From Verrucomicrobiia bacterium (lineage in GTDB: Bacteria > Verrucomicrobiota > Verrucomicrobiia > Palsa-1439), in assembly GCA_049511095.1 (NCBI GenBank), contig JBEKYJ010000003.1, forward strand, positions 1 to 60,006: a DNA stretch of 60,006 nucleotides. The letters run 5' to 3'. The first letter of the stretch is position 1, and the number at the start of each line of letters is the position of its first letter. Shown piece after piece: positions 16,077 to 41,850 of this stretch. The notes below the pieces were generated by a model, which searched no databases, had not been told where the DNA came from, and worked only from the letters and a program-made list of their open reading frames with translations. The position numbers and the translations under genes are program-made.

Positions 16077-16138
16077 CCGCCTGCGCCGGGAAATCAAGGC
16101 TTGCAGAACGACACTCCGATCGTACCAACCACTGAACT

Positions 16139-16564: not shown

Positions 16565-16704
16565 AAGATGGCTTTTCGCTCCTATTTGCGGGCTCTCGTT
16601 TAAGCAAGTCATATGCCACCCAGGGCCTTGTGGTGCAGCATTATCCAATGTCGGTTTCCCCGACCCGAGGCGTGGAATACTCCCTGCTCTGGCGGTTACT
16701 CATC

Positions 16705-17097: not shown

Positions 17098-17220
17098 ATG
17101 GCGCGCAGGACTCGCCGGTCGACACACCCCCAGCCAAACCGCGCGAGTTTGAGTTGAGGCCCCGAAACCTCTCCTTCCGTTGCATATCGCAGGTGGGTGG
17201 CGTAAGTTCACGCCACGGTC

Positions 17221-18753
17221 ATGCAGGATACAATCGCAGCCAATCCACTTCGGGAAGGCCTCAGCACGCAGCAAGCGCCGGAACCGTGCGCCTTGGTTAT
17301 CTTCGGCGCCACCGGCGACCTCACCCACCGCAAGCTCGTCCCGGCCCTCTATAACCTCGCGCACGAAGGACAGCTCCCGCAGTCGTTCGTTATCGTTGGT
17401 TTCGCGCGCCGGCCGAAGACCCATGACCAGTTTCGTGCCGAGTTGCGCGACGCCGTAGCGCAGTTCTCGCGCTTCCAGCCCATCAACCCCGCCGTGCGGG
17501 ATGCGCTGGCGCAGGCGATTTTCTACCACCAATCGGAGTTTGCGGACCCGAAAGGGTACCAGACGCTCGGCGAATTCCTGCAAAGACTTGACGCCGAGCG
17601 CGGCACCGCCGGCAATCGTCTCTTCTACCTCGCCACGTCGCCGACGGAGTTCATCGGCATCATCGAACAGCTTGGCGCGAGCGGCGTGGCCCGGACGCGC
17701 GGATCACCGCCGCGCATCATTGTCGAGAAACCATTCGGCCGCAGCCTCCCCACGGCCCACGAGTTGAACCACAAGTTGGCCGGTGTCTTCCCCGAGCGGC
17801 AGGTTTTCCGCATCGACCATTATCTCGGGAAGGAAACCGTCCAGAACATCGTGGCTCTTCGTTTCGGCAACGAAGTTTTCGAGCCGCTTTGGAACCAGAA
17901 ATACATCGACCACATCCAGATCACGGTTGCCGAATCCCTGGGTGTGGAAGACCGCGGCAGTTATTACGACAACTCCGGCGCATTGCGCGACATGGTACAG
18001 AACCATCTGATGCAATTGCTCTCATTGGTGGCAATGGAGCCGCCTCCCGTGCTGGAAGGCGAAGCCATTCACGACGAAAAAGTGAAGGTTCTGCGCGCCC
18101 TCCGTCCGATCACACCTGACCAGGTCCAGCAGCTCACCGTGCGCGGCCAGTACGCGCCCGGCTCAATGGCGGGCAACCCCGTTCCCGGCTATCGGGAGGA
18201 AAAGAACGTGGCCCGCGACTCGCGCACCGAAACCTTTGTGGCGCTGAAATTCTTCATCGACAATTGGCGCTGGGCCGGCGTCCCGTTTTACCTCCGCCAC
18301 GGCAAGCGACTGCCCAAAGGCGTGGCCGAGATCGCCATTCAATTCCAGGCGCCCCCCGCCGTGCTGTTTGCCGCCGAATCGCCCGTTCCGCTCCAGCCGA
18401 ATGTGCTGGTGCTCCGCATTCAGCCCGATGAAGGCATCGCCATCCGCATGAACGCAAAAGTCCCGGGCAACACGATCAACCTGCAACCGGTGAAGATGGA
18501 TTTCCGTTACGGCGGCAGCTTCGGCGCCCGCTCGCCGGAAGCGTATGAACGACTGCTTCATGATATCATCCTCGGCGACTCGACGTTGTTTACGCGCCAC
18601 GACGAGGTCGAGCGTTCATGGCAGATCATCGACGCGATCATCGACGGCTGGAACGCGTCCCCTGCCCCCTTGCCTTACGAGTCGGGTACGTGGGGTCCGA
18701 CGGAAGCAGACGAGTTCATCCAGCGTGACGGTCGGGAATGGAGACGCCCGTAA
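17221..18753 (+). CDS. zwf: glucose-6-phosphate 1-dehydrogenase
   Basis: ALVIFGATGDLTHRKLVPALYNL, RIDHYLGKE and full-length G6PD similarity. Stops with TAA. Confidence 0.95.
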   Translation: MQDTIAANPLREGLSTQQAPEPCALVIFGATGDLTHRKLVPALYNLAHEGQLPQSFVIVGFARRPKTHDQFRAELRDAVAQFSRFQPINPAVRDALAQAIFYHQSEFADPKGYQTLGEFLQRLDAERGTAGNRLFYLATSPTEFIGIIEQLGASGVARTRGSPPRIIVEKPFGRSLPTAHELNHKLAGVFPERQVFRIDHYLGKETVQNIVALRFGNEVFEPLWNQKYIDHIQITVAESLGVEDRGSYYDNSGALRDMVQNHLMQLLSLVAMEPPPVLEGEAIHDEKVKVLRALRPITPDQVQQLTVRGQYAPGSMAGNPVPGYREEKNVARDSRTETFVALKFFIDNWRWAGVPFYLRHGKRLPKGVAEIAIQFQAPPAVLFAAESPVPLQPNVLVLRIQPDEGIAIRMNAKVPGNTINLQPVKMDFRYGGSFGARSPEAYERLLHDIILGDSTLFTRHDEVERSWQIIDAIIDGWNASPAPLPYESGTWGPTEADEFIQRDGREWRRP

Positions 18754-19847
18754 TCATGCCCGACCGCGCACAATTGGAAACATTTACCGCCGGCACCGAA
18801 ACCGCCGTCGACGTGGCGCAGATCGAGCGCCAGCTCCACGAGTTGTGGCAACTGGCCGCGGAATCGGAGAAGGACCCGTCGCAACGTCAGATCACCCGCG
18901 ACTGCCTCTTCAACTTCATCGTCCTCTGTGAAACCGACGCGGGGGCCGCGCACGCCGGCGAGGTGATCAGCTCGCTCACGAGTCATCATCCGTGCCGGGC
19001 GATTGTGCTGTCGGCCGGGTTGGACTCCGCCCCAGCGGAACTGTCCGCCTCCATTTCCGCCCATTGTCACCTCGCCGGCACGGGACAAAAACAGGTTTGT
19101 TGCGAGCAGATCGCGATTCGTGCCGCCGGCCAAAGTGTGGCGCACCTCGGCTCAGCCGTACTTCCGCTGCTGGAGTCCGACCTGCCGACGATCGTCTGGT
19201 GGCAGGGCAACTTTCTGGAAAGAATCGATCTCTTTCGTCGATTGGTGGCGGCGGCGGACCGGGTCATTTACGACACGTCAGCCTGGACCCAAGCGCCATC
19301 GCAGCTCGCCGGTCTGGCCCGCGTCATCACCGAATATCCGCGCTGCAGTTTTGCCGACTTGAGCTGGACGCGGTCGGGCTTGTGGCGGCGACTCGCGGCG
19401 GAGTTTTTCGACGAGCCGCAGTGCCGCGCCGAACTCAAGCGCATCCGTACAGTGGACATCCTTCATGGCGGCGGGCCGGGGGCCGTCGTGCGCGCGTTGC
19501 TGTACGGTTCGTGGTTCGCCGCCCAACTCCACTGGCCTGTCCCCGAGGCGAAAACGAGGATTCATCTTTCCCGGCGCGATGATCCCGAAGCCGCGTCGGT
19601 GGGCATTTTGTCGGTCGCCATCAAGACCGACCGTGCCACGTTTTCGATTCGCAGCAACCGCGGTGAGAACACGGCGAGCGCGACCGTCGAGATGCCCCAT
19701 GCCTGTGGTCTGCCGCGTAAACGCGCGTTCTGGCGGTCGGATGATGCCTCCCTGCTGTCACAGGAACTCGACCATTCCGTACGGGATGCTGTCTATGAGA
19801 AGTCGCTGGCGATGACGGTCGCGTTGCTTGAGGAAAGCTCGCGCTGA
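18738..19847 (+). CDS. opcA: OpcA-like glucose-6-phosphate dehydrogenase assembly protein
   Basis: Immediately follows and overlaps zwf. The N-terminal VDVAQIERQLHELW and the NFIVLCE pattern are typical of OpcA. Alternative start ATG 18756 sits behind GGAG. Confidence 0.75.
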   Translation: METPVIMPDRAQLETFTAGTETAVDVAQIERQLHELWQLAAESEKDPSQRQITRDCLFNFIVLCETDAGAAHAGEVISSLTSHHPCRAIVLSAGLDSAPAELSASISAHCHLAGTGQKQVCCEQIAIRAAGQSVAHLGSAVLPLLESDLPTIVWWQGNFLERIDLFRRLVAAADRVIYDTSAWTQAPSQLAGLARVITEYPRCSFADLSWTRSGLWRRLAAEFFDEPQCRAELKRIRTVDILHGGGPGAVVRALLYGSWFAAQLHWPVPEAKTRIHLSRRDDPEAASVGILSVAIKTDRATFSIRSNRGENTASATVEMPHACGLPRKRAFWRSDDASLLSQELDHSVRDAVYEKSLAMTVALLEESSR

Positions 19848-19944
19848 GGCGCAAGAAGAACGCGGCGCTGTTTTTTCGATTGCCACTCCTTGGAAGGCGC
19901 GCTACACATGGTGGCGGGGAACTTCGCAACAAAAGGAGGAGGTA

Positions 19945-20673
19945 ATGAAACGGTCGTTTCTTGTTTGGGCCCTGTTTCTGGGCGCTTGGGTTGGTCAACC
20001 CGCCATTTCGCATGGGCTGGCTCCGTCACCAGTCGGCACATGGGAAGTCTCCATTCTCGGCTTCGATACGGGTACGTCGATCATGACATTCTCCAATGAC
20101 TTCACGGTCACCGGCTGCGGCATCATGCGGCATCAATTCGGATTCTTCACGCTCGCAGGCAACTGGAGCCTTGACGCCCATGGCGGCGTGATTGTCTCCT
20201 ACCTTCTGTCAACCAACGGTGTCGGCAGCGGCGGCGCCAGTTTCACCGCCCGCCTCTTACACTCAGGGAGGTTCCGCGGGAGCGGACACGACGATAACGG
20301 CAAACTGCTTCACTTCAAGGGCGAACAGCCGTCGAATCTTCCGGACCTGACCGGTTCATGGACGGCGGTCGTCAAACGTCGCGGCAAGACCCTCCTTGAA
20401 ACCTACGACATTACTGCATCGACCAATTTCCCGGCGGTCTTCGACGTCACTGGAAATGGGTCGAGCGAGACAGCAGGCTCGTACACTCTCACGGGCACCA
20501 TCATCGCCACGCCAAACAACAAGCTTAATGCGTCCATCGACCGCACATTCGGTGCCGAAACCCAGCACAGTTCGCTCGCCGGGAGAGTCAAGCACAAGGA
20601 TTCCGACATGCGACTGAAGGGTCGCGACGACACGAACGTGCATCTGTCGATCAAAGCGGTGAACGGTTCCTGA
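19945..20673 (+). CDS. secreted hypothetical protein with an internal two-fold repeat
   Basis: Strong SD AGGAGG before ATG 19945. Signal peptide MKRSFLVWALFLGAWVGQPAISHG. Two similar halves (GTWEVS...FTVTG... / GSWTAV...FDVTG...). Confidence 0.65.
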   Translation: MKRSFLVWALFLGAWVGQPAISHGLAPSPVGTWEVSILGFDTGTSIMTFSNDFTVTGCGIMRHQFGFFTLAGNWSLDAHGGVIVSYLLSTNGVGSGGASFTARLLHSGRFRGSGHDDNGKLLHFKGEQPSNLPDLTGSWTAVVKRRGKTLLETYDITASTNFPAVFDVTGNGSSETAGSYTLTGTIIATPNNKLNASIDRTFGAETQHSSLAGRVKHKDSDMRLKGRDDTNVHLSIKAVNGS

Positions 20674-20739
20674 CGGCGCCGGGGTTTCCGGGATTGACCG
20701 TTTTGGAAGCTTTCACCTAGAGTGGCGCCCGACCGCGCC

Positions 20740-22011
20740 ATGAACATCCTTGTCATCGGAAACGGCGGGCGCGAACACGCGCTTGTCTGGAAGATCGCCC
20801 AAAGCCAGCGCGTCCGAAAGCTCTTCTGCGCTCCGGGCAACGCCGGCATCGCCGAGTTGGCGGAATGCGCGCCGATCCCGGCCACGGACATCGACAAGCT
20901 CGCGGCGTTCGCTTCCGAGCAGAAGATCGATCTTACCATCGTCGGCCCCGAAACGCCCTTGTGCGCCGGCATCGTCGACGTGTTCAATGCCCAGGGGCTG
21001 CGTATTTTCGGCCCCAATAAACGCGCCGCCCGATTGGAAGGCAGCAAGGTTTTCGCGAAAGAGATCCTGCTGAAATACAATGTGCCGACGGCGTCTGCGG
21101 CCATTTTCAACAACGCGGGTGATGCCCGGGCCCACCTTCGAAAGGTCGGCGCGCCGATTGTGGTGAAAGCCGACGGGCTCGCGGCCGGCAAAGGCGTGAT
21201 TGTCGCGTCGTCCGTCGAAGAGGCCGAGCAGGCCGTCGCCGAAATCATGGAGCGAAAGGTCTTCGGCGCCGCGGGCGCGCAAGTGGTCATCGAGGAATGC
21301 CTGTGCGGCGAAGAACTGTCCGTCATGGCGCTCGTAGATGGCCAGTCCTTCCAGATGCTGGCGTCCGCGCAGGACCACAAGCGCGCACTCGATGGCGACC
21401 GCGGTCCGAACACGGGCGGCATGGGCGCGTATTCGCCGACGCCGTTGCTGGACGAGAAGCTCCACGAGCAGGTGGCCGGGATCTTCCGGCAGACGCTGGC
21501 CGGGTTGCGGGCGGAAGGCATCCAGTACCGCGGCGTGCTCTACGCCGGCTTGATGATCACCCCACGCGGTCCACAGGTGCTGGAGTTCAATTGCCGTTTT
21601 GGCGATCCCGAAACCCAGGCTGTGCTGCCGCGGATGGATTTCGATTTGGTGGAGGCAGCGGAAGCCACCCTCAACGGCTCGCTCGACCGCCTGGCGTTGA
21701 AATGGAAGAGCGAGGCGGCGGTCTGTGTGGTCATCGCGGCCGGCGGGTACCCGGGCCGATACCAACCCGGCCAGCCGATTGCAGGGTTGAAAGAGGCCGC
21801 CAAGTTGGGTAAGGTTTGCGTGTTTCATGCGGGCACGCGGCGGAACGCCGGCGGTCAAATCGTCACGGATGGCGGACGGGTCCTGGGTGTTACCGCGCTC
21901 GGTGAGAATATTGAGAAGGCGGCGCGGCGCGCCTACGAAGCTGTCCAGCAGATTCATTTTGACGGCGCCCACTTTCGCCGCGATATTGCCGCCCGTGCGA
22001 TACAGAAGTGA
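20740..22011 (+). CDS. purD: phosphoribosylamine--glycine ligase
   Basis: MNILVIGNGGREHALVWKIAQS, full-length PurD ATP-grasp. Confidence 0.95.
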   Translation: MNILVIGNGGREHALVWKIAQSQRVRKLFCAPGNAGIAELAECAPIPATDIDKLAAFASEQKIDLTIVGPETPLCAGIVDVFNAQGLRIFGPNKRAARLEGSKVFAKEILLKYNVPTASAAIFNNAGDARAHLRKVGAPIVVKADGLAAGKGVIVASSVEEAEQAVAEIMERKVFGAAGAQVVIEECLCGEELSVMALVDGQSFQMLASAQDHKRALDGDRGPNTGGMGAYSPTPLLDEKLHEQVAGIFRQTLAGLRAEGIQYRGVLYAGLMITPRGPQVLEFNCRFGDPETQAVLPRMDFDLVEAAEATLNGSLDRLALKWKSEAAVCVVIAAGGYPGRYQPGQPIAGLKEAAKLGKVCVFHAGTRRNAGGQIVTDGGRVLGVTALGENIEKAARRAYEAVQQIHFDGAHFRRDIAARAIQK

Positions 22012-22060
22012 AACTGGCGGAAGGACCCGCGGGAACAGAAATTTGATTTTGCGAGGTACG

Positions 22061-23188
22061 ATGAAAACAGTGGCCGTAACAATCAGCGCCGCGCTTGCGC
22101 TCCTGCTGGCGGGGGCAACGTCGTTTTGCCGTGCCGCCAACGTCGATCCGTCTTTGCGACAGACGATGGAGATCATCAGCGTTCTCAAATCGAATTACGT
22201 CGACCACGACAAACTCGACGAGAAACTGCTGAACGAAGCGACCGTAACCGGTATCCTGGGGGCGCTGGGCCGCGGGGCCGTGATCCTCGCGCCGGAGACG
22301 CCATCAACCAACGGCACCAAAGCCGTTGACAGCGAGCTGAAACCGGCGGGTCCCCTCGCCCGCGCAGAGGTCATCGATCCCCATATCGGCTACATCCGTC
22401 TGGCCGATGTGACGGAGGGGACCCCGGCCGCGCTCGATGCGGAACTGAAAGGATTCGCCGACGCAAAAGTGGCGGGCTACGTGCTTGACCTTCGTTTTGC
22501 CGATGGCACGAACTTTGCCGCCGCCGCCGCGGTGGCGGGTCGATTCCTGGACGACGGACAGGAAGTGTTCACGCTGAAGAGTTCGGATAAGGGCGCGCAG
22601 GTCTTTCGGGCGGGTTCGGACATCAAGTCCGCGTCGTCCAACGGGTCCGACCTGGCTTCCGCGCCACTGATGCTGCTGGTAAACGCGGAAACGCGAGGGA
22701 GCGCCGAGGCCCTAGCCGGTGCGTTGCGCGCGCAGGACCGTGGCATCATTATCGGTTCGCAAACCGCAGGCTCGGCGGCGGCCTGGGAAGATGTGAAATT
22801 GAGCGATGGCCGCACGTTGCGCATCGCCACGGCCAAGATCGTGTTGCCCCACCTCACTGGCGCGGGGCCGCAAATCGACATTTTTCCCAATGGAATTACG
22901 CCGGACGTGGCCGTCAAGATTGAAGTCCAGACGGAACGCGCGGTGGTGCTCGCGCAAACCAACGAGACGTTGACGGCGAGCCTGCAGTTGCGCGTGAACA
23001 AGAACAATTTGACGGAGGCGCAGTTGGTCAAGGCGTTCCGGGGAGAGGCCGTCAGTCGCTTTGACAAGCCATCGCCCGTCGACAAGGCGCACGAAGAGGA
23101 AGACGATATCCAAAACGTGCGCGACGTGGTGCTGCAACGGGCGGTGGATATTCTGAAGGGGATCCGCGTGCTGTTGTCCTGGCAATGA
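22061..23188 (+). CDS. S41 (C-terminal processing peptidase)-like secreted protein, possibly non-catalytic
   Basis: Signal peptide from ATG 22061. S41-like core GYVLDLRF...[33 protein letters not shown]. The usual TFGKG lysine position reads TAGSA. Confidence 0.65.
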
Positions 23189-23237
23189 GGCGCGGACGCG
23201 GCGCGATCCTCCCGTCGTCCGGACGCAAAAGGATTCG

Positions 23238-25460
23238 ATGAAGAAGATTCTGTTCATCTGCACAGGCAATGTTTGTCGCAGCCCGATGGCGGAGGGCCTG
23301 CTCCGGCACATGCTGCGCGGTCGCAACGACGTTCAGGTGGCCTCCGCGGGCCTCGCCGCGCTTGACAGCCTGCGGGCCACGGATGCCGCCATCAACGTCA
23401 TGGCCGAACTTGGCATGGACATTTCCTCGCACGTCAGCCAATCGTTGAACAGCGATCTGGCGCGGCAGGCGGATTTTATTTTTGTGATGACCCACCAGCA
23501 TCAGGACACGCTCCAGACGCTTATTCCGTCCGCCGCTGAGAAGACGTTTCTCGTGCGCGAGTTCGAGGAGTCCCGCGCCGGCGAGAACAAAGACATCGCC
23601 GATCCGATTGGCCAGTCCATCGATGTGTACCGCCGTACGCGCGACCAGATTCGCGACGCGTTGCCGAGCCTGATCGTGTTCATGGACCAGACCACGGCCG
23701 CGGCACGCAGGGTGACCCGGGAAGTCACGGCGCCGGCCACGAATGAAGAAGCCCGGCCGTTGCGCATCGCGCTGGCGGGCGATCACGGCGGCGTCGAGAT
23801 CAAGGCAGCGTTGAAGGATTGGCTGGCACAGCACGGTTATCCATTCTCCGATTTTGGCACACACACGACCGAGCCGGTGGATTACCCTGAGTACGCGTTT
23901 ATCGTCGCGCGAGAGTTGCTGGCCGGAAATTTTGACCGCGGGGTGCTGGTCTGCAAGAGCGGCATCGGCATGACCATTGCCGCCAACCGGTTTCCCGGCG
24001 TGCGCGCCGCCATGGTCAGTAACGAACAGTGGGCCCGCCTCAGCCGCGAGCACAACAACGCCAACGTCCTTGTGTTATCGGGCATCGAACTCAACGGGGA
24101 ACAAGCCAAGCAACTTTTGGACGTCTGGTTGCACACGGACTTCGGTGGCGGTCGCCACGCTCGCCGCGTCGACGAAATGGACCATCCACCTGTCATGAAC
24201 GTCACCTCGACACCCTCAAAAAAGACATCGGCGCTGGCAGTGGCTGACCCCGAGATTTTCAGCGCCGTCCAGCGTGAGAAGCAACGCCAGCAGGAAAACA
24301 TCGAGTTGATCGCCAGCGAAAATTTTGTCTCGCCCGCGATTCTCGAAGCGGCGGGCTCGGTGCTCACGAACAAGTACGCTGAAGGCTACCCCGGTAAGCG
24401 TTATTACGGCGGCTGTGAATACGTGGATATCGCCGAACAACTCGCGATCGACCGCGCCAAACAGCTTTTCGGCGCCGAACACGTGAACGTCCAGCCGCAT
24501 TCCGGTTCGCAGGCCAACATGGCGGTGTACTTCGCCACCATCCAGCATGGAGACACGATCTTGACAATGGAGCTGGCCCACGGCGGCCATCTCACCCACG
24601 GCTCGCCGCGCAATTTCTCGGGCCGCTTCTACAAGGTCGTGCACTACGGTGTGCGCCAGGACACCGAAAGGATCGACTACGATCAACTGGCCAAGCTCGC
24701 GCAGGATTGCCGCCCGAAGATGATCACCGCCGGCGCCAGCGCGTATCCGCGGATCATCGACTTTCAGAAGATGCGCGAGATTGCCGACAGCGTCGGCGCG
24801 CTGCTCTTTGTCGATATGGCGCACATCGCGGGCCTAGTTGCCGCCGGCATTCATCCCAGCCCCGTACCCTTGGCCGATTTCGTCACCACGACCACGCACA
24901 AAACGCTGCGCGGCCCGCGCGCCGGTTTGATTCTCTGCAAAGCGAAATACGCCAAGGACATCGACAGTTGGGTGCTGCCGGGTATTCAAGGCGGGCCGCT
25001 CATGCACATCATTGCCGCGAAAGCGGTCTGTTTCCTCGAAGCGATGAAGCCCGATTTCAAGGACTATCAACGACAGATCGTGAAAAACGCCAAGGCACTC
25101 GCCACCGCGTTGGCAGCGCACGGTTTCCGCATCGTCAGCGGCGGGACGGACAATCATTTGATGCTCGTCGATCTCCGCCCGAAGAAACTCACCGGCAAGA
25201 TTGCCCAGGAATCGCTCGACCGCGCCGGCATCACGACGAACAAGAATCTTATCCCGTACGATCCCGAGAAGCCGCTTGTCACCAGCGGCATCCGCCTCGG
25301 CACGCCTGCTGTCACCACCCGCGGCATGAAAGAAGCCGAGATGGACCAGGTCGCCGCGCTCATCACCGAAGTGCTGGCGAAGCCAGACGATACAGCCCTG
25401 CAAGCCAGCGTAAAGCAAAAGGTGCGCGCCCTGACCGCGAAATTCCCACTGTCGTATTAG
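23238..25460 (+). CDS. glyA: tri-domain fusion: LMW protein phosphatase (aa 1-150) + ribose-5-phosphate isomerase B (aa ~174-314) + serine hydroxymethyltransferase (aa ~330-740)
   Basis: Phosphatase motifs: CTGNVCRS P-loop and DIADPIG. RpiB motifs: [11 protein letters not shown] and [20 protein letters not shown] motifs: [34 protein letters not shown]. One continuous frame, ending in TAG. Confidence 0.9.
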
Positions 25461-25514
25461 GGTAAGTTCGAATCTCGAAGTTCGAAACAAGTCCGAATTC
25501 CCCAATCGGCAATC
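25350..25514 (+). repeat. direct repeat copy A: last 37 codons of glyA plus a TTCGAA-rich tail
   Basis: Aligns with 27733-27909 at roughly 85-90 percent identity by eye. Ends exactly at the stop codon of the convergent 25515-27581 gene. Confidence 0.9.
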
Positions 25515-27581
25515 TCACGCGCCGGCAGCTACCGTCTTTCGTGGTGGCAGAAACAGGACGACGTAAGACAGCGCGTAAAGCACCAAGGCAACCAACCAGA
25601 GCTCCCGGAAGCCGATGACGAGCGAACTGTACTCGATCAACCCTCCGATGACCGCGCCGAGCAAGTTCGAAGCAAAAGCCAGATCAACGTTCGGCGTGTG
25701 CTTGTATGAGCGCGCAAAGATGAAAGCGGCAAAAAAGATGGGCGAGGCCATCAGCATCATGGAAACAAGGAGGCGCACGATTAATCCTGTGCGTAACAGT
25801 ATGTGGATGGGGAACACAAAGTTAATCATGACAGCGGCAGCCAACAACCCGTAGAGCAGGTGGAGATTGAATGACTGAATACGGTTCATCCACAGATTGG
25901 CGAGCAACACGACGATCAAGATCGCGCTGAAGACGATCGAGTTGACCACCCAGGTCGAGCCGAACAGCATCGCGAAGCGTGTCACACTGACGGTTTCGAT
26001 GAGCAGGAAAGCAACGCCGAGGAAAAAGAAGTGCCCATTGACCGTTTGCATTTTGCCCTGCGACGCGAAAACGACGCACACCAGCGTGATGAGCGCCATG
26101 GCTTCAAGAGCCAGACGATACTCCGGCGGCACCTTGCGTCCTGCCAGATAGAAAAAAGGCCAGTCGTCCGTGGCCGGATTGACCATCGGAATGTCTGTGG
26201 TTTGCACGTTGTGGATGTATTTCTTTACACCCGGTCCGGCAAAAAAGCTGGGCGATCCCATTGGATCCGGGTCCTTCACGTACGGCTTCTCACCAAAAGC
26301 CTGGGTCAACATATGGAACATTCGGCGATTGAGATACATATTCCCCAGGGTGTGCTTGACGACAACGATGCCATCGTCCTTCAGAAGACTTCGAGCTTCC
26401 TGAAAACTTTCGACGGTGTAGAGAAAAGAATCGAGCCGCACTGACGACATGCCGGAGAAGAGCCGATGAGCATCGAGGAACCCGAAGATGATCATGTCGT
26501 ATTGGGAGTGGGTTTTGTTGAAGAACGAACGCGCATCATCGATGAACACATGCACGCGGGGATCGCTGTACGGTTGTTCGGCATGAGCGACCCGCCCCAA
26601 ATTGAGAATTCCGGGGTCGATCTCCACGGCGTCGACGTGACGCACGCCGTAGCGCAAGGCCGCGGCGACATCATTGCCCGTGCCGGTGCCAATGATCAAG
26701 ACATCGTTGTAGGGGAAGTCGGGGACGCTGAAAGGCGTGACGTAGAAGGTCACGATCTTGGTTATATTGGTGTGATCCTGTTGCACCCGGGGAGACAGAT
26801 CGATCGCTTGCTGGTAAAAGTCGCCGCTCAATTCCACGCGGAACCCCGGCGTGTTACGGAGGGCGGGCAGTTCCACCGGGCGAACCATTTCGTCTCGGGC
26901 CTGTAAGTCCCCGTTCCCGTTCCACTCGAGCGGATACACACCCAGCGTGTGGTACGGCGTCCAGAAATACATTTCTCCCGCCAACCAGACCACGAGCACG
27001 GTTGTCACAGCGATCAATGCGTTCAAGGCAAGCCAACTTTTATCGATGCGGACAAACCACAACAGACCCAGCATCACGATGCCGAACCACCACCAAGGAC
27101 CCGCGTTGAGAAACGACACGAGCGTGAATGCCAACACTCCGAGCAGGCTGCCCAAAATGTTGATCACATAACCTCGGAGTGGCGGGGATACCGCTTTGAG
27201 GCCTGCTCCAATTTGCTGCCCAAAAGGCACAAAGACCATGGCAACGAGAACGAAAAGAAGGCTCAAGCTCTCGGTCAGCGACAAAAACCACAGGACGTGA
27301 CGCTTGTACTCGGCATAATACACGTCATCGGGAATCGGGCCGGTCATACCGAATTGATTGAACATGATGCCGACAGCCACGAAGCCCAGTAGCGCCAAGG
27401 GTTGCCAGGCAAGCCAGCGTCGTCCTCGTCCCGTCAGCATCGCACCCAGTCCCAAGCCCAGGAATGCGCCGATCAGTATGAAATTCGTGAAATAGGCCAA
27501 CACGCGCTCGTAGGCGGGCACCCAACGGATCAACGCCAGCTCCACGAACAGCGCGAGAAAACTAGCGACGAATAGATCCAT
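25515..27581 (-). CDS. membrane-embedded spermidine-synthase-like protein (SAM-MTase fold flanked by multi-TM regions)
   Basis: VLIIGTGTGNDVAAALRYGVRHVDAVEIDPGILNLG...IFGFLDAH core, with many TM helices on both sides. Start ATG 27581 (MDLFVASFLALFVELALIRW) preferred. The ORF is open up to 27722. Confidence 0.8.
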   Translation of the reverse strand: MDLFVASFLALFVELALIRWVPAYERVLAYFTNFILIGAFLGLGLGAMLTGRGRRWLAWQPLALLGFVAVGIMFNQFGMTGPIPDDVYYAEYKRHVLWFLSLTESLSLLFVLVAMVFVPFGQQIGAGLKAVSPPLRGYVINILGSLLGVLAFTLVSFLNAGPWWWFGIVMLGLLWFVRIDKSWLALNALIAVTTVLVVWLAGEMYFWTPYHTLGVYPLEWNGNGDLQARDEMVRPVELPALRNTPGFRVELSGDFYQQAIDLSPRVQQDHTNITKIVTFYVTPFSVPDFPYNDVLIIGTGTGNDVAAALRYGVRHVDAVEIDPGILNLGRVAHAEQPYSDPRVHVFIDDARSFFNKTHSQYDMIIFGFLDAHRLFSGMSSVRLDSFLYTVESFQEARSLLKDDGIVVVKHTLGNMYLNRRMFHMLTQAFGEKPYVKDPDPMGSPSFFAGPGVKKYIHNVQTTDIPMVNPATDDWPFFYLAGRKVPPEYRLALEAMALITLVCVVFASQGKMQTVNGHFFFLGVAFLLIETVSVTRFAMLFGSTWVVNSIVFSAILIVVLLANLWMNRIQSFNLHLLYGLLAAAVMINFVFPIHILLRTGLIVRLLVSMMLMASPIFFAAFIFARSYKHTPNVDLAFASNLLGAVIGGLIEYSSLVIGFRELWLVALVLYALSYVVLFLPPRKTVAAGA

Positions 27582-27732
27582 TTGCACCGAGCCAGAGGAT
27601 GCGTCGGAGACGGGCCGCGGCGACGGCTCGGCGTGCGGTGTTACAGGCAAGTGTGACGTATCAGCTGACACGAATTGGGTATTTCTACCCGAACTGTGGC
27701 GAATCCGCAACACACCTTGCATCCCACGCGCA

Positions 27733-27909
27733 GATCGCCGCGCTTATCACGGAAGTGCTGGCGAAACCCGACGATGCAGCTCTGCAAGCCAGCGTGAAAC
27801 AGAAGGTGCGCGCCCTGACCGCGAAGTTTCCGTTGCCGTACTAGTAGGGATAAGTTCGAATCTCGAATTTCGAAACTCGAAACAAGTTCGAATTCTTCAA
27901 TCGGCAATC
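27733..27909 (+). repeat. direct repeat copy B: orphan relic of a glyA 3-prime end plus a TTCGAA-rich tail
   Basis: Encodes [39 protein letters not shown] with no upstream SHMT body. Differs from copy A mostly at synonymous positions. Confidence 0.9.
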
Positions 27910-28111
27910 AGGGCTTGTCGAGCAATCACATTTCTCGCTACACTCGGTCGCGATGCAGGCGAGCGCATACCAAGTCTGCGGCGGCTGTACCCAGAAGACC
28001 CTTGCGATAGCTTCCACCCGAAGACGATCTCAATTGGACCATGACCCCCGGCACCGGCGACTACGAGATCATCATCGACCGCAACAATTTTATCGATGAA
28101 AGGTTTGGAAT

Positions 28112-31100
28112 ATGGCTGCGATGAAACCTGAAGAGAGTTGGCTGCGCGCTGACGACAAGGTGCGGAAGAACCTGCCGCCGGGCGTGAAACTCGTGCGCAC
28201 GCTACGGGGACATACGGGCTACATCGGGCGCATCGCGTGGTCGCCGGACGGGCGAATGTTGGCCTCGCCGTCGGAGGACAAGACGATCCGGCTGTGGGAT
28301 GCCGAGACGGGCGAGTGCCTGCGCATGCTGGAAGGACACGAGGACCAAGTCTATAGCGTCGCCTTTGATCCGACGGGCCGCACGCTGGCCAGCGGGAGTG
28401 GCGACAAAACGGTCAAGCTGTGGGAGCCGGCCAGCGGCAAACTGCGCCGCACGCTGAAAGGGCACCAGTCCGCGATTTGGAGCGTCGGCTTCGATCCGGC
28501 GGGCCGCACCTTGGCCAGCGGCGGTTCTGACGGGACGGTCAATCTTTGGGATCTGGCCTCTGGAGAAGTTCATCGCACCCTAGGACCACACCCTTCGTAT
28601 GTATCAAGCGTGGCCTTTGACAGACAGGGTTCCTTCCTAGTATGCGCGGTCGGCTTCGGTAGCCCAATGGTCAAGCTGTGGGAGACATCCAGTGGCAAAG
28701 TCCTTCACACCCTCACTGGGCACGAAGGCCAAGTAAATTCTGTCGCTATCGACAACGAGGGACTATCTGTAGCAAGTAGTGCCGGCGATAAGACGATCAA
28801 GTTGTGGGCAGCGGACACTGGACAGCTCATTCGCACTTTAGAAGGACACACGAATGATGTGAATTGCGTCGCATTTATTCGAGATGGGCAACTGTTGGCG
28901 AGCAAAGGCTGTGGCGGCGACAACACTGTGCGCCTCTGGCACAGCAAGAACGGCGTTTGCGTCGCCAAGATCTCGGAGCCAGCTGTGGGGCGAATCGTGC
29001 CTGGTCTTGCCTTCCACCCGCGCCTGCCACTTCTCGCCACGGCCGGTTCAGATCCCGGCACGCCGAGAGAACAGTGTGACCGCGTCATCCACATCTGGGA
29101 GCTGGACCTTGCCGTCCTGCTCGGCCGGGTGGCAGAGCCAACCGCCCACTACGTCAACGCCAAGGTGGTGTTGGTGGGCGACACAGGCGTGGGCAAGACT
29201 GGTCTAAGCCTGGTGTTGAACAGCCAACCCTACAAGGAAACCGACTCGACGGCGGGGCGGCACGTGTGGACGTTCGGTTCACAGGAAGTGAGTGTCGGAA
29301 GCAACGTCACGCAGACCCGCGAGACGCTGTTGTGGGATTTGGCCGGCCAGCCGGGCTACCGCGTCATCCACCAGTTGCACCTCAACGAAGTGGCTGTCGC
29401 GCTCGTGGTGTTCGATGCGCGCAGCGAGACCGATCCGCTGGCCGGCGTCCGGCACTGGGAGCGTGCCTTGCGCCTAGCGCAACAGCGTCAGGGGACCGCA
29501 GGCGTGCCCATGAAGAAGTTTCTGGTGTCCGCCCGCAACGACCGCGGCGGCGTGTCCATCGGTGAGGACCGCGTGCAGAAGATCCTCGATGAATTCGGCT
29601 TCGACGGTTACTTCAAGACCAGCGCCAAGGAAGGCTGGCAGGTCAAAGAATTACGGGCAGCCATTGAGCAGGCGGTCGCTTGGGAAAAGCTGCCGGAGGT
29701 TTCGTCTTCGCAATTGTTCGCCGACATCAAGTCGTTCCTGCTGGAGGTGAAGAAGACGGGACGGTTGCTGGCTCCTGCGGGCCAGCTTTACGACGACTTC
29801 GCCCGCCAGAATCCCGACACGGTGGTGAAAGTGGCGAACCTCCGGGACCAGTTCGTTACGTGCATCGGCCGGCTGGAAAACCGTGACCTGATCCGCCGCC
29901 TGACCTTCGGCGGCTATGTGCTGCTCCAACCGGAACTGTTGGACGCCTATGCCTCCGCGATGGTTAACACGGCGAAAGAGGAACCGGACGGCCTCGGTTC
30001 GCTGGCGGAAGAAGTCGCGCTCGCCGGCAAGTTCTTCGTGCCAAAGGAGCAGAAGATCACGGACGCCGGCCAAGAGCAGTTGCTGTTACACGCGACGGTG
30101 GAAGAACTGGTCCGGCACGACCTGGCGCTGCGGGAAAACGCGGATGACGGGCGCTACCTGGTCTTTCCATCGCAGTTCAACCGCGATTACGAAGACGCGC
30201 CCGAACCGAAAGGCAAGGCGGTGGCGCTGACCTTCGACGGGCCGGTCCAGAGCCTTTACTCGACGCTGGCGGTGCGGCTAGGTCACAGCGGATTGTTCGC
30301 GACCCGGCGGGTGGAGATGTGGCGAAATGCGGCGGTGTTCACCGCCAAAGCGGGTGGCAAGTGTGGACTGTTCCTGCACGAGTTCGCCGAGGGGCGCGGC
30401 CGCTTGATCCTCTTCTACGACAAACAGGCCAGCATTGAGACGCGCTTCCACTTCGAGGAATTTGTCATAGCCCACGCCAATCAGCGCGCGCTGGATGACA
30501 CGGTCGAACTTGTGCGCTTCTTCGTGTGTCCCGATTGTGGCGACCCGGTGCCCGACAGTTATGTGAAGCGACTCAGGGAAAAAGGAACAATGGAGTTCAA
30601 TTGTCCTTGCGGCGGAACCGTGTCACTGGCCGAGCCGAAGGAGCGGATTCACTTCAAATCGAAAGTTGAGGCGATGGAGAAATCCGCCGACCGACAGCGG
30701 GACTTCGATGCGTTCGTCCTGTCGGCCAAGGGGGAGACGAGGACGAGGAGCTTCCAAGACTGGGCCGGAGGCGAGCGGGTCACGCTGGCGATTGTGTTCA
30801 CCGATGTCGTCGGCTCGACGGCCCTGGGAGAGGAAATCAGGGATGAGGCCATGGACGCAGTCCGGCGGGCGCACTTTGCCCAAAGCCGGAAGCTGATCGG
30901 CCAGTTCAAGGGCCGGGAAATCAAGACCATTGGCGACAGCTTCATGGCGGCGTTCAGATCCGTGGATGCCGCTCTGGACTACGCTTTGGCGTTGCATGGG
31001 AATACCGGCCATCCGCAGGTGCAGATTCGCGCCGGCATTCATATCGGGCCGATGCAGGTGGAGGAAGGCGATGTGTTCGGCGGCACCGTGAACTTCGCCG

Positions 31101-31273
31101 CCCGCGTGGTTGGCGCCATTCAGGGTGCGGAAATCTGGCTGAGCGAGCGGGCGAAAGAAGACATTGATCGGCTCGGTGCCGCACAGCACAAAGGGTTGGG
31201 ATGGAAACAGCACGAGCGGGTCACCATGAAGGGCTTCCCCGGCACCTTCACTCTTTGGTCGTTGCGGAAGTAA
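28112..31273 (+). CDS. WD40 (7 blades) - Roc/Ras-like GTPase - COR-like - zinc ribbon - class III adenylate/guanylate cyclase multidomain protein
   Basis: Seven GH...D-K-T-[IV]-[KR]-LW blades (aa 25-335). GTPase motifs G1 GDTGVGKT, G3 WDLAGQ and SARND (aa 349-520). Zinc ribbon CPDCG...CPCGG (aa 806-834). Cyclase motifs FTDVVGST, KTIGDSFMAAF and GGTVNFAARV (aa 888-1050). Confidence 0.9.
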   Translation: MAAMKPEESWLRADDKVRKNLPPGVKLVRTLRGHTGYIGRIAWSPDGRMLASPSEDKTIRLWDAETGECLRMLEGHEDQVYSVAFDPTGRTLASGSGDKTVKLWEPASGKLRRTLKGHQSAIWSVGFDPAGRTLASGGSDGTVNLWDLASGEVHRTLGPHPSYVSSVAFDRQGSFLVCAVGFGSPMVKLWETSSGKVLHTLTGHEGQVNSVAIDNEGLSVASSAGDKTIKLWAADTGQLIRTLEGHTNDVNCVAFIRDGQLLASKGCGGDNTVRLWHSKNGVCVAKISEPAVGRIVPGLAFHPRLPLLATAGSDPGTPREQCDRVIHIWELDLAVLLGRVAEPTAHYVNAKVVLVGDTGVGKTGLSLVLNSQPYKETDSTAGRHVWTFGSQEVSVGSNVTQTRETLLWDLAGQPGYRVIHQLHLNEVAVALVVFDARSETDPLAGVRHWERALRLAQQRQGTAGVPMKKFLVSARNDRGGVSIGEDRVQKILDEFGFDGYFKTSAKEGWQVKELRAAIEQAVAWEKLPEVSSSQLFADIKSFLLEVKKTGRLLAPAGQLYDDFARQNPDTVVKVANLRDQFVTCIGRLENRDLIRRLTFGGYVLLQPELLDAYASAMVNTAKEEPDGLGSLAEEVALAGKFFVPKEQKITDAGQEQLLLHATVEELVRHDLALRENADDGRYLVFPSQFNRDYEDAPEPKGKAVALTFDGPVQSLYSTLAVRLGHSGLFATRRVEMWRNAAVFTAKAGGKCGLFLHEFAEGRGRLILFYDKQASIETRFHFEEFVIAHANQRALDDTVELVRFFVCPDCGDPVPDSYVKRLREKGTMEFNCPCGGTVSLAEPKERIHFKSKVEAMEKSADRQRDFDAFVLSAKGETRTRSFQDWAGGERVTLAIVFTDVVGSTALGEEIRDEAMDAVRRAHFAQSRKLIGQFKGREIKTIGDSFMAAFRSVDAALDYALALHGNTGHPQVQIRAGIHIGPMQVEEGDVFGGTVNFAARVVGAIQGAEIWLSERAKEDIDRLGAAQHKGLGWKQHERVTMKGFPGTFTLWSLRK

Positions 31274-31300
31274 GAAGGGAACGACCAATCGGAGACGGCG

Positions 31301-31332
31301 CGGAGCGGACGCCTCGGAGAGGCGTCCCTACC
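31301..31332. repeat. REP-like hairpin element, copy 1 (identical 32-mer)
   Basis: The sequence is cggagcGGACGCCTCggaGAGGCGTCCctacc: a 9-bp stem, 3-nt loop and CTACC tail. It is identical to 31469-31500. Confidence 0.85.
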
Positions 31333-31468
31333 AACGACAGGCAAAGGCAACGGCGGCAGGGCGTGTCGTCAGGCTCCGCTATCGGGAATTGATATTATTG
31401 CTGGACGGGGTGGGCCGGGGGTGGTATGATGGCGACAGTTGTTTGACAAACGTGTTGGGAGGAAGAAA

Positions 31469-31500
31469 CGGAGCGGACGCCTCGGAGAGGCGTCCCTACC
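31469..31500. repeat. REP-like hairpin element, copy 2 (identical 32-mer)
   Basis: Same 32 nt as 31301-31332. The flanks are also similar (acg.c...aagg). Confidence 0.85.
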
Positions 31501-31668
31501 GACGGCGAAGGAATGATGGTTGGCAAGGGGGTTTGCACTCGCTCGCGCCCGCTCGGCTTCGCACGCTACAACGGCCACTCGGATGGGCTGGGGATTGCCG
31601 CAGGAAAGGAGTTGCGGCGTCTCGAGGACTCGGCTTCCCACGCTACACCAACTTGCCGGTGAACACAG

Positions 31669-31695
31669 CACGGCTCGCAGAGCCGTGGCTACACC
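31669..31695. repeat. REP-like hairpin with CTACACC tail
   Basis: CACGGCT-cgcag-AGCCGTG followed by gCTACACC. Confidence 0.6.
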
Positions 31696-31715
31696 GAACA
31701 CGCCACACCGGGGAC

Positions 31716-31742
31716 GGCGCGGTGGGGCCACCGCGCCCTACC
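31716..31742. repeat. REP-like hairpin with CTACC tail
   Basis: GGCGCGGTGG-gg-CCACCGCGCC followed by CTACC. Confidence 0.7.
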
Positions 31743-31791
31743 TAAAGAGGCGTTGGCTGGGGAACTCTTTATAAGAATACGCTTTTTTACC

Positions 31792-31866
31792 AAACGAACC
31801 CAACTGAAAAATGCGTAAGCGTCGTAGCATGAAATGGTTAGGGAAAAATTGGAGTTGGGTTCGTTT
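31792..31866. repeat. 13-bp perfect inverted repeat (AAACGAACCCAAC / GTTGGGTTCGTTT) with a 49-nt spacer in an AT-rich spacer upstream of fba
   Basis: Read directly: arms at 31792-31804 and 31854-31866. Related GAACCC/GGGTTC motifs occur at 31939-31946 and 31993-32003. Confidence 0.7.
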
Positions 31867-32061
31867 TGCAAAAAAGACCCAAAAATCGACGAGAAAAGCG
31901 GTAAAAGAAGCACCGGAAGGACGATTTTTGACCGAAATGAACCCAAAGAACACGGCCTGAACCGGACCAAAATGAAGTTTGACGCACTTCGGGGGGTTCG
32001 TTAGTGTCGCTGTTGCGAGGATGTGCCCAGGATCGCGTCGTTTAACGAGGAGAATTCAGAC

Positions 32062-33018
32062 ATGATTGTCACCACCGCACAACTGTTCAAGATCGCCTAC
32101 GGCAAATACGCCCTCGGCGCTTATAACATCAATAATCTGGAGCAAACCGTCGGCCTGTTCAAAGGCAACGTCCAGAGCAAGGCGCCGTTCATCATCCAGC
32201 TCAGCCGGGGCGCGCGCAAATATACGGACAAGCGTTATTTGGAGGCGATGATCCGCACGTCCGAACAGGTGTTCCCCGAGGCGATTTTTGCCGTCCATCT
32301 CGATCACGGCGATGAGCAGACGTGCTACGACTGCATCGATTCCGGGTTTTACAGTTCGGTGATGATCGATGCCAGCCATGAGCCCTTCGAGAAGAACGCC
32401 GAAATCACCAAGCGCGTTGTGGACAAGGCGCACGCCCGCGGCGTGTCCGTCGAGGCGGAACTCGGCATGCTCGGCGGCGTTGAGGAAGACGTCGTCGGCA
32501 CCGTTTGCCTGACGAATCCTGACGAAGCGAAGAGATTTGTTGCGCTGACGAAATGTGATTCTCTGGCGGTGGCCATCGGCACGAGTCACGGCGCGTACAA
32601 GTTCAAGGCGGAGCCGGGCAAGAAGTTCGGGTTGCACTTTGAAGTCATTGAGGCGATCCAGAAGCTGTTGCCGGGCTATCCGATGGTCATGCACGGCAGC
32701 TCGAGCGTGCCCAAGGATGAAGTGGATCGCATCAACAAGGCCGGCGGCAAGATGCTGCAGACCAGCGGCGTTCCCGAGGAGGATTTCCTGCCCGCCGCGA
32801 AGATGGGGGTGTGCAAGGTCAATATCGATACCGATGGCCGCCTGGTATGGACGCGCGTCCATCGCGAGTTTTTCCGCGATCACCCTGACAAGTTTGACCT
32901 GCGCGATCCCGGCAAGATTTATATCGACGAGTACGCCAAGATGATGGCGCACAAGAATCGGGCGCTCGGTTCTGCCGGCCAACTCGACGACGTCCGCGCC
33001 AGGGTCGGCAAGAAGTAA
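32062..33018 (+). CDS. fba: class II fructose-bisphosphate aldolase
   Basis: SD GAGGAG before ATG 32062. AYNINNLEQ, FIIQLSRGA, VHLDHGD and full-length class II aldolase similarity. Confidence 0.95.
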   Translation: MIVTTAQLFKIAYGKYALGAYNINNLEQTVGLFKGNVQSKAPFIIQLSRGARKYTDKRYLEAMIRTSEQVFPEAIFAVHLDHGDEQTCYDCIDSGFYSSVMIDASHEPFEKNAEITKRVVDKAHARGVSVEAELGMLGGVEEDVVGTVCLTNPDEAKRFVALTKCDSLAVAIGTSHGAYKFKAEPGKKFGLHFEVIEAIQKLLPGYPMVMHGSSSVPKDEVDRINKAGGKMLQTSGVPEEDFLPAAKMGVCKVNIDTDGRLVWTRVHREFFRDHPDKFDLRDPGKIYIDEYAKMMAHKNRALGSAGQLDDVRARVGKK

Positions 33019-33025
33019 CGTGCGC

Positions 33026-34135
33026 CTAGCGTTCTTGTGACGCAGGAACCACTGTCAGCCGTTGGCCTTGCGGCTGCGGGGCCGCTGTCTGCTGAATCGA
33101 CGACGGGTTGAACTCCTCTTCCGGGGGGCGGTTGCCAACGACGACCAGGAGCTTTTGCTCCTGTCCGTTCCGAAGCACCGTGAACTCCACGGCATCACCG
33201 ACGCGGTGATAGAACATCGTATTGATAACGTCCGCCGAACGATGCACGCCATTGCTCGTAATGCTCACGAGAACATCGCCGTTGCAGAAACCGGCGGCGG
33301 ATGCCGGCGCATTCGAGTAAATCTGCTGAATGAAGACCTGCCACTGATTGGACTGCGTGGCGTTGATGGCCAGTTGCCGTTCAGAAACGGCGAGGCCGAC
33401 CCAGGTGTGCTGGGGTTGGCCGAATTGCAGAATATCCGCGCTGATCTTGCGCGCGGCGTTGATCGGCAGCGCACAGCATTGGTCGTCCATGTGCGCCGCC
33501 ACGGCAATGCCGACGACTTCGCCGCGCACATTCAGCAACGGGCCGCCTCCCTGTCCGGGCTTAAGCCGGCATTCGGCGCGGATGTGACTGGGGGCGAGAA
33601 AATGCCCGCTGCGTTGAATGTCCAATCCGCCGATAAAGCCCACCACGGGCGTGCTGGGCAAATCGTAGGGAAACCCGATGGCGATCACCATCGACCCGAC
33701 GCGCAGTTCATCGGAATTGCCCTGTGGCAGGAACGGCGTCGCGGTTCCGGTCTCGGGTTCGATCTTCAGCAGGGCCAGATTGGTTTGCGGGTCACGCCCG
33801 AGGATGCGGGCACTGATTTGCCGGCCGTGCCAATCGATCCAACAAGTGTCCGCGTCTTCCACCACGGTGGCGGCAGTCAGGATGTGCCCGTCCCGGTCGA
33901 TAAAAAAGCCGGTTCCGATACGGTACGACGGAATGAGCGAGACCCCGCCGACGTGGAATTGGCGCTGGGCGTGAATTTTGACAATTGCGTCCCTGGATTT
34001 CTCGTAAATCGACGAGACTTCCTGATCGATGGTTTCGAGCAGCCCGGCAGCGAAGACCGCCGTCGGGGTCGTCGCCACAAAGAGCGCGACCCACAAGGTG
34101 GCGCGCCGCCTAGAACTGGACGTTTGGAACGTCAT
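33026..34135 (-). CDS. HtrA/DegP-like trypsin-fold + PDZ protein with all three catalytic residues substituted (pseudoprotease)
   Basis: The S1C scaffold GTGFFIDRDGHILTAATVV / GRDPQTNLALLKI / KPGQGGGPLLN aligns to DegP GSGVII..YVVTNNHVV / GKDPRSDIALIQI / RGNSGGALVN. A PDZ domain follows. Signal peptide from ATG 34135 (MTFQTSSSRRRATLWVALFVATTPTAVFAAG). Confidence 0.85.
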   Translation of the reverse strand: MTFQTSSSRRRATLWVALFVATTPTAVFAAGLLETIDQEVSSIYEKSRDAIVKIHAQRQFHVGGVSLIPSYRIGTGFFIDRDGHILTAATVVEDADTCWIDWHGRQISARILGRDPQTNLALLKIEPETGTATPFLPQGNSDELRVGSMVIAIGFPYDLPSTPVVGFIGGLDIQRSGHFLAPSHIRAECRLKPGQGGGPLLNVRGEVVGIAVAAHMDDQCCALPINAARKISADILQFGQPQHTWVGLAVSERQLAINATQSNQWQVFIQQIYSNAPASAAGFCNGDVLVSITSNGVHRSADVINTMFYHRVGDAVEFTVLRNGQEQKLLVVVGNRPPEEEFNPSSIQQTAAPQPQGQRLTVVPASQER

Positions 34136-34757: not shown

Positions 34758-34766
34758 AAATGTGAC

Positions 34767-37600: not shown

Positions 37601-37661
37601 GACTCGGAGGCATCCTCGCCGCAGAGCATCCATCCCGGCTCTCTCTGTTGGAGCCCGAAGT

Positions 37662-40542: not shown

Positions 40543-40556
40543 GCAAACAACTGCTT

Positions 40557-41846: not shown

Positions 41847-41850
41847 GATC

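Follow-up and report, generated by a model that had tools for sequence, protein, structure and literature searches.

The window analysed here, a 60,006-nucleotide stretch of contig JBEKYJ010000003.1 from a Verrucomicrobiia bacterium (assembly GCA_049511095.1), contains a slot between the genes glyA and fba in which the 3' end of glyA occurs twice, once as the end of the working gene (copy A) and once as an orphan (copy B) on the far side of a convergent membrane gene. The source genome of the window, G000, is a metagenome-assembled genome (MAG) of 292 contigs and 3.9 Mb. With a probability of roughly 60%, the locus is a recombinant of two diverged haplotypes of the glyA-fba cargo slot, formed by a 3'-end displacement resembling homology-facilitated illegitimate recombination (HFIR) that orphaned copy B. 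This reading is favored because the exchanged tract has one homologous end and one microhomology end. The event is a known kind of gene capture in a natural example and not a new mechanism.

Two diverged glyA ends and two cargo genes

The glyA gene (23238-25460, plus strand) was described in the first-pass annotation, which was made from the sequence of the window, as plain glyA. The serine hydroxymethyltransferase (SHMT) is present, but the open reading frame (ORF) really encodes a 740-aa fusion of a low-molecular-weight (LMW) phosphatase, RpiB, and SHMT (Pfam PF01451, PF02502, and PF00464). The fusion ORF has a single match in G000 and is kept across the class. Copy A comprises the last 37 codons of this gene (25347-25457, plus strand) and the TAG at 25458-25460, followed by a run of TCGAAnn heptads (tail A, 25461-25514). 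Copy B (27731-27841, plus strand, TAG at 27842-27844) and tail B (27845-27910) repeat this arrangement, tail A being one unit shorter than tail B, and no glyA sequence lies upstream of copy B. A whole-genome search confirmed the earlier observation that the last 37 codons, the TAG, and a TTCGAA-rich tail recur across the membrane gene, with copy B and its tail as the sole other full match (82% identity, E = 4.5e-46). The coordinates proposed for the pair, 25350-25514 and 27733-27909, were nearly right, the repeat beginning 3 nt before the stated position in copy A and 2 nt before it in copy B. Homology ends with ...CAATC at 25514, and the adjoining TCA (25515-25517) is the stop codon of the minus-strand membrane gene, exactly where the repeat had been said to end.

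Copies A and B differ at 16 of 111 nt, distributed 4/0/12 over codon positions 1, 2, and 3. Thirteen of the differences are synonymous and three are not (V/I, T/A, and S/P), and copy B retains its TAG, which reproduces the first-pass count exactly. Nei-Gojobori estimates were 0.69 for synonymous divergence (dS), 0.037 for non-synonymous divergence (dN), and 0.054 for dN/dS, and the longest identical run within the 82%-identical repeat was 23 nt. Polarization with 17 other sequences of the genus placed I->V and P->S on copy A, each against 16-17 of the 17 others, with proline present in 17/17 at the latter site. The A->T site is less clear, the copy B base occurring in 11/17 and the copy A base in 5/17. 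Judged from these sequences, the derived state at all three non-synonymous sites is best assigned to copy A. All B-specific changes are synonymous, compared with approximately 32% expected for random point changes, and the live glyA of a close relative (P0123) ends in a C-terminal peptide identical to that of copy B. Copy B is therefore not an in-situ duplicate in decay. It is a fragment, orphaned recently, of a functional glyA allele whose divergence proceeded under purifying selection, in agreement with the earlier argument against neutral decay.

In separate ENA, JGI, and Logan assemblies, six contigs were 100% identical to the window across both repeats and their junctions, two of them spanning 23000-33000. 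A seventh strain (L145), 97.7% identical overall (window 25125-28833), has the same layout with copies A and B unchanged. Because six independent assemblies and this strain agree, the repeat structure is real and not a MAG artefact; a diverged repeat of this kind could nonetheless mislead assemblers. All 85 differences of L145 are confined to 25100-25199 and, within the membrane gene, to 25600-27099, with none in the repeats or in 27100-28833, a pattern which suggests a further recombination tract within the cargo gene.

Within the genus, the glyA-fba interval is a hotspot for cargo genes. At least 12 genomes of the genus carry glyA and then fba, directly in most and with one small gene between them in G003, G005, G011, and G017, the product of which starts MIKGIA…. 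At least seven distinct cargo sets occupy the slot across the genus. By flank identity, the closest relatives of G000 are lineage D (contigs L134-L136; 95-97%) and L132 (94-96%), followed by G004 (91-93%). G004 and the window align collinearly at 16063-27739 and again at 31784-44328, and 27740-31288 is missing from G004. Its slot consists of glyA, a tail, the convergent membrane gene, and fba; a second glyA end and a WD40-Roc-cyclase gene are both absent, and the DNA specific to G000 in this comparison comprises copy B with its tail, a spacer, and the WD40-Roc-cyclase gene. The slot of lineage D reads glyA, tail, a 137-bp stretch, a second tail, spacer, WD40-Roc-cyclase gene, and fba, with no membrane gene. 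L132 has two small ORFs and no membrane gene, L144 has a DNA methyltransferase, and G016 has a large subtilase (>1141 aa) after a full glyA (contig C22, L080). The membrane gene of G000 shares 90.5% nucleotide identity with that of G004. The WD40-Roc-cyclase gene is at the same place in D, is absent from G004, and was found among the compared G-numbered genomes only in G011 (46% aa identity). Since G004 has the membrane gene only and D has the WD40-Roc-cyclase gene only, the G000 slot is the union of a G004-type and a D-type slot, and the extra glyA end sits precisely where the two cargo genes meet. The first-pass description of a single-gene insert holds for the bracket of two repeats but not for a simple insertion, as the locus recombines two cargo haplotypes. 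Presence and absence in relatives gave a divided answer, the segment being absent from D and L132 and its membrane gene present in G004.

The junction on the membrane-gene side was located by comparison of G000, G004, and G016. The membrane gene lies at 25515-27581 on the minus strand and encodes 688 aa according to gene callers (735 aa from an alternative ATG at 27722), with a central spermidine-synthase-like domain of SpeE fold (partial matches to Pfam PF01564 and NCBIfam PRK03612). Its upstream region, a probable promoter (27582-27730, minus strand), is homologous to G004 and G016 up to ...GCGCAG(A/G)T. The common sequence ...TCCC(A/T)CG(C/T)GCAG(A/G)T... is found in G000, G004, and G016, and the three diverge right after it. 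The joint region reads GTGCAGATCTCC in G004, GCGCAGGTGG in G016, where CAGGT stands in place of CAGAT, and GACCAGATCGCC in the glyA of relatives, in which codons -37/-36 lie within GAC-CAGATC-GCC. In G000, homology switches from the membrane-gene upstream region to glyA codon -37 inside CAGATC (27731-27736), a motif common to both sequences. A 6-bp perfect overlap is expected at approximately 0.1% of random joints by (n+1)(1/4)^n(3/4)^2, with G004 serving as only a proxy for the donor. The left side shows no discontinuity; glyA turns from sister-like to G000-unique between 24907 and 25350. Joining of GATC restriction ends by ligation was weighed and discarded, as the sequence at the left junction is CAGGTC and not CAGATC.

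Proposed exchange, its direction, and competing explanations

Under the preferred HFIR-like reading, the resident chromosome would have been D-like, with a glyA carrying a B-type end, the heptad tail, spacer, WD40-Roc-cyclase gene, and fba. Incoming DNA from a related lineage would have carried a G004-type slot consisting of glyA, tail, and convergent SpeE-like membrane gene. At its left end this DNA would have paired with resident glyA by ordinary homology, with a crossover in 24907-25350. At its right end, approximately 150 nt upstream of the membrane-gene start codon, it would have been joined illegitimately to resident glyA codon -37 via a 5-6 bp CAGAT(C) microhomology native to both the membrane-gene upstream region and glyA. 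The donor-derived product would amount to approximately 2.4 kb, comprising copy A with its tail and the membrane gene with its promoter. The glyA gene would have stayed intact, as the donor supplied a replacement for the last 37 codons, while the resident last 37 codons, TAG, and tail would have been pushed 2.4 kb downstream as the presumably non-functional copy B. A single crossover of a circularized 2.4-kb fragment would be an equivalent route to the same product, and the DNA may have entered by transformation or otherwise.

Copy A would thus be the donor-derived end. The direction with copy A incoming and copy B resident is favored by about 2:1 over the reverse and is less certain than the mechanism; it is preferred because of the match of tail B, the divergence of the distal half of copy B, the cluster of G000-unique changes in copy A, and the base composition of the membrane gene and its absence from the two nearest lineages. 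Tail B matches the tail of D at 61/63 nt (96.8%), compared with 51/61 (83.6%) for tail A. Over the last 48 coding nt, copy B differs from D at 3 positions and from L132 at 2, and copy A at 8 and 7, respectively, with a background of approximately 2.3-3.1. Sites unique to G000 relative to four close relatives number 7 in the 111 nt of copy A versus an average of 1.6 per 111 nt over the remaining glyA sequence (Poisson P = 0.0015). No such substitutions occur in glyA 24907-25261; donor-type sites begin at 25350, or possibly at 25262, and upstream of approximately 25262-25350 the G000 gene is about 95% identical to D, which equals the background. Only the last 111 to approximately 200 nt of glyA look donor-type by this sequence comparison. 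The first-pass proposal that incoming DNA brought a glyA 3' end with the membrane gene and left a relic therefore has the better-supported direction, but its further claim that most of the resident glyA was replaced is not supported, given the upstream identity of ~95% to a sister lineage. The GC content of the membrane gene is 54-58% versus 60-64% in the flanks, and the gene is absent from D and L132, the nearest lineages by flanks, and present in the more distant G004.

In a tree of the 111-nt end, copies A and B, D, L132, L144, and G004 were recovered as one clade (87/91 support), with copy A on the longest branch and no resolved order inside the clade. The phylogeny of the two copies foreseen in the first-pass annotation was thereby obtained at the level of the clade but not of its branching order. 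Copies A and B are, on sequence grounds, alleles within one five-lineage species complex and not distant xenologues, so that of the two origins proposed earlier for copy B the diverged glyA allele under purifying selection stands and the xenologue does not.

Several points weigh against this history, and in particular against a clean version of it. Within the 111-nt tree, D and G004 group together (96/97 support), contradicting the flanks, where D is closest to G000, and glyA 3' ends appear to have been shuffled repeatedly from lineage to lineage, separately from the remainder of the gene. The identity of the membrane gene to G004 equals the G000-G004 background and fits vertical inheritance with loss in D and L132. 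In lineage D, TCACGC still follows the first tail, possibly as a remnant of the membrane gene where it ends with its stop codon. The WD40-Roc-cyclase gene is only ~88% identical between G000 and D (40-60% in the blades), well below the 96% of the flanks, and because of this the two are not simple orthologues. The first 63 nt of copy B are as far from the sister lineages as those of copy A and are thus uninformative on residence, and the dS of 0.79 between copy A and G004, versus 0.33 gene-wide, rests on only approximately 28 synonymous sites. No donor genome with copy A and without the relic was found in scans of genome and metagenome contigs. An exact-pattern scan for the tail core gave G004 and one chance match among genome contigs and five chance matches, none related to the window, among metagenome contigs, and a protein search with the membrane gene had no match in the identity range that separates the G004 cluster (92%) from 78%. 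Furthermore, classical HFIR usually deletes recipient DNA and does not duplicate it.

Two observations on glyA ends in other lineages accompany the tree. The ends of D (L134:12110-12223) and G004 have a common patch, GA(T/C)GTGACGTTGCAGGCC, which is also present in a fragment from G016. This fragment (contig C285:1-73, L078) consists of the 71 nt that end a different glyA allele, after which come the ancestral intergenic region and fba, is 93% identical to copy B over 60 nt, and may be a second, independent orphaned end or a mere contig break between strains.

An exchange in the reverse direction is possible but unlikely. Under this alternative, the resident would have been G004-like, with an A-type end and the membrane gene, and D-like DNA would have delivered copy B with its tail, the spacer, and the WD40-Roc-cyclase gene. 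The illegitimate junction of this DNA would be the CAGAT(C) motif upstream of the membrane gene, and its fba side would have recombined through ordinary homology or through that of repetitive extragenic palindromic (REP) repeats. This would agree with the DNA of G000 absent from G004, its nearest complete genome, being exactly 27740-31288 (copy B and the WD40-Roc-cyclase gene), with a right border at the stop codon of that gene beside dispersed repeats. It would also agree with the membrane gene standing at background identity to G004 (90.5% versus 91-93%), with the high mobility of the WD40-Roc-cyclase gene, found at 70-88% nucleotide identity in MAGs labeled as many phyla, and with its identity of merely 88% to the D copy. 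The reverse direction is opposed by the lack of the membrane gene in D and L132, by the excess of G000-unique changes on copy A and not copy B, including a serine where 17/17 others have proline, and by the background-level divergence of tail B and the distal half of copy B from the sister lineages, as for vertical inheritance.

Site-specific cassette exchange is considerably less probable. The heptad tail (TCGAAnn units ending in CAATCGGCAATC) would in that case be the docking or recombination site of an undescribed system shuttling single genes into the glyA-fba slot, served by a recombinase encoded elsewhere, with the glyA repeat as an extended att site. The relic may then be a by-product of one imprecise exchange, and the cargo observed in the slot includes the defence-like WD40-Roc-cyclase gene, the DNA methyltransferase, the subtilase, and the SpeE-like membrane protein. 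The tail is indeed found repeatedly at the edges of cargo, in shuffled contexts, namely glyA/membrane gene (tail A, G004, and the first tail of D), glyA/spacer (tail B), and repeat element/spacer (the second tail of D, and L144), and both the seven or more cargo sets in the genus and the 23-nt identical run are in line with such a system. Nevertheless, the bracketed segment contains no integrase or transposase, the membrane gene being its only Pfam-matched ORF (shorter overlapping ORFs were left unscanned), and G004 holds the same cargo without a second repeat. Moreover, the joint lies at a microhomology 111 nt inside glyA and not in the tail, the two copies are 18% diverged with no long identical core, and the tail was not found outside the clade in genome and metagenome contig scans.

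Duplication of the glyA end in situ long ago, in tandem or through slippage, with the surplus copy then decaying independently, is very improbable. The direct repeats, 2.4 kb apart, and the similar CAGAT(C) motifs at both unit ends in G004-type DNA would suit it, but in a relic that had drifted to a dS of 0.69, non-synonymous changes should predominate and stops or frameshifts would probably be present, and here dN/dS is 0.054 with no non-synonymous change derived on copy B. The distal half of copy B also matches the live genes of sister lineages, and G004 is without a second copy. An assembly chimera stitching together the glyA ends of two strains, conceivable in a MAG of 292 contigs, has a negligible chance given the six fully identical contigs from different samples and assemblers and the 97.7% strain with the same layout.

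Tails, neighboring genes, and dispersed repeats

The first-pass annotation suggested that the palindromic tails are weak bidirectional terminators, and this was rejected. A consensus scan gave no terminator-like site in either tail (25461-25514 and 27845-27910), and Rfam gave no match in 25300-28200. Fold z-scores of the tails ranged from -0.5 to -2.3, and only the minus strand of tail A beat shuffles (z = -2.3), with no U-tract. The tail was likewise rejected as a genome-wide repeat, as the search gave only three weak 29-nt matches (E = 0.008), all from a different heptad-containing element. A dispersed element of approximately 130 nt was observed in G000 at C81:~15950-16100, C2:~29780-29920, and C115:~12210-12340, with CGAAAC/TCGAAAT heptads between direct repeats of GGGCAGATTGGAAAAGAGTGGC; despite heptads similar to those of the glyA tail, it is a distinct element.

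In lineage D the two heptad tails (L134:12226-12480) are 137 bp apart, and the stretch between them begins with TCACGC, like the stop end of the membrane gene. This stretch holds a palindrome, TTTATGGATAGCACTATCCATAA, that is dispersed over at least eight G000 contigs. The 137-bp stretch of D and a 247-bp stretch of L144, each situated between glyA and a tail, contain the dispersed palindromic repeat, and they were rejected as decayed glyA relics, since their alignment scores were no better than those of shuffles. The L144 cargo (10224-11845) is a minus-strand N6/N4 DNA methyltransferase, the ORF of which has no stop of its own and runs through the heptad tail and the 247-bp stretch almost to the glyA stop.

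Tail B is of the resident type and is followed by AGGGCTTGTCGAGCAATCAC, as in D and L144. The spacer 5' of the WD40-Roc-cyclase gene (27911-28111, plus strand) is unique in the genome and 77% identical to that of D, with the same tail junction. A sigma-70-like site (27921-27892, minus strand; TCGACA, 18 nt, AAGAAT) lies at the border of tail B and the spacer, pointing toward the membrane gene; it is the one match in 25200-28300, and shuffles also give one by chance. An 81-aa or 68-aa gene is called at 27599-27844 (plus strand) in several public assemblies. This ORF is the antisense of the membrane-gene 5' region running into the 37 relic codons and is very probably spurious, an instance of the relic being read as a gene by gene callers.

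The WD40-Roc-cyclase gene (28112-31273, plus strand) encodes 1053 aa with WD40, Roc GTPase, and class III nucleotidyl cyclase domains (Pfam WD40, Roc/Ras, and Guanylate_cyc), and would be an earlier cargo of the glyA-fba slot. Compared with D, its propeller blades (28345-29045) are 40-60% identical and the rest 82-96%, so that the blades look like a hypervariable sensor domain in the alignment. Homologues with 70-88% nucleotide identity (loci L081-L124) were found in MAGs labeled Planctomycetota, Acidobacteriota, Nitrospirota, Gemmatimonadales, Betaproteobacteria, and Methanothrix/Methanosarcina archaea, with nucleotide homology stopping at the start and stop codons of the ORF. Two of these homologues are bracketed by direct repeats. 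In a betaproteobacterium (L100, 3779-3822/7222-7265) the repeats are 44 nt long, 91% identical, and represent the 3' end of the upstream gene including its stop codon, and in a member of the Gemmatimonadales (L110, 3691-3760/8370-8439) they are 70 nt long, 93% identical, and represent the 5' end of the downstream gene including its ATG. Orphaned gene ends may be a recurrent scar of the spread of this gene.

Between the stop codon of the WD40-Roc-cyclase gene and fba lies a cluster of dispersed REP-like hairpin repeats (31274-31966) with 211 short BLAST matches across the genome, and the content of this interval differs among G000, G004, and D. The fba gene itself (32062-33018, plus strand; PF01116) encodes a class II fructose-bisphosphate aldolase and is the usual neighbor of glyA in the genus.

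Comparison with known systems

HFIR has been described in the transformation of Acinetobacter, Streptococcus pneumoniae, and Pseudomonas stutzeri and in Escherichia coli conjugation (de Vries & Wackernagel 2002; Prudhomme et al. 2002; Meier & Wackernagel 2003, cited in PMC5361080; PMC3240628). The G000 locus resembles it in that a foreign tract has one end in continuous homology (glyA) and the other at a 5-6 bp CAGAT(C) joint, with the cargo trapped between them. It differs in that the illegitimate joint lies inside the recipient anchor gene, so that recipient DNA was duplicated as an orphan 3' end and not deleted, and in that the event was inferred from natural genomes of uncultured Verrucomicrobiae and not observed. 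Junction scars of HFIR are mostly lab-made or inferred for toxin loci, and here a natural, uncultured soil/peat population of Verrucomicrobiae preserves one, with both parental haplotypes, membrane gene only and WD40-Roc-cyclase gene only, still found in relatives.

Orphan 3' regions arising by displacement are described for Rhs loci (Jackson et al. 2009) and, as sequential displacement, for effector-immunity modules belonging to type VI secretion (T6SS) in Vibrio cholerae (PMC5361080). As in those systems, a conserved 5' anchor received a new 3' end and the old 3' end was kept downstream as an orphan. Rhs and T6SS loci, however, diversify toxin tips and keep immunity genes, and their orphans can be functional, whereas the piece displaced at G000 belonged to a housekeeping enzyme, its replacement specifies an almost unchanged peptide, and an unrelated gene in convergent orientation forms the payload.

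The locus can also be set beside integrative elements. Genomic islands and integrative and conjugative elements (ICEs) integrate in the 3' ends of genes and provide a substitute end, as do the tRNA and tmRNA islands and ICESt1 and ICESt3 in fda. In these elements, as at G000, direct repeats of a 3' end bracket acquired DNA and an element-borne copy completes the gene. G000 differs in having no integrase among the Pfam-matched ORFs, no clearly identifiable att core, the longest identical run being 23 nt, and no clean present/absent polymorphism; G004 has the cargo without the second repeat.

Finally, Oliveira et al. reportedly described, in 2017, chromosomal integration hotspots between core genes. 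The glyA-fba interval fits that concept in that its accessory genes vary from lineage to lineage. The locus illustrates how the flank of a core gene turns into a cargo hotspot while the anchoring housekeeping gene survives through a synonymous replacement end from the donor. The hotspot concept is statistical and carries no mechanism, whereas the G000 locus preserves the junction-level scar of one event.

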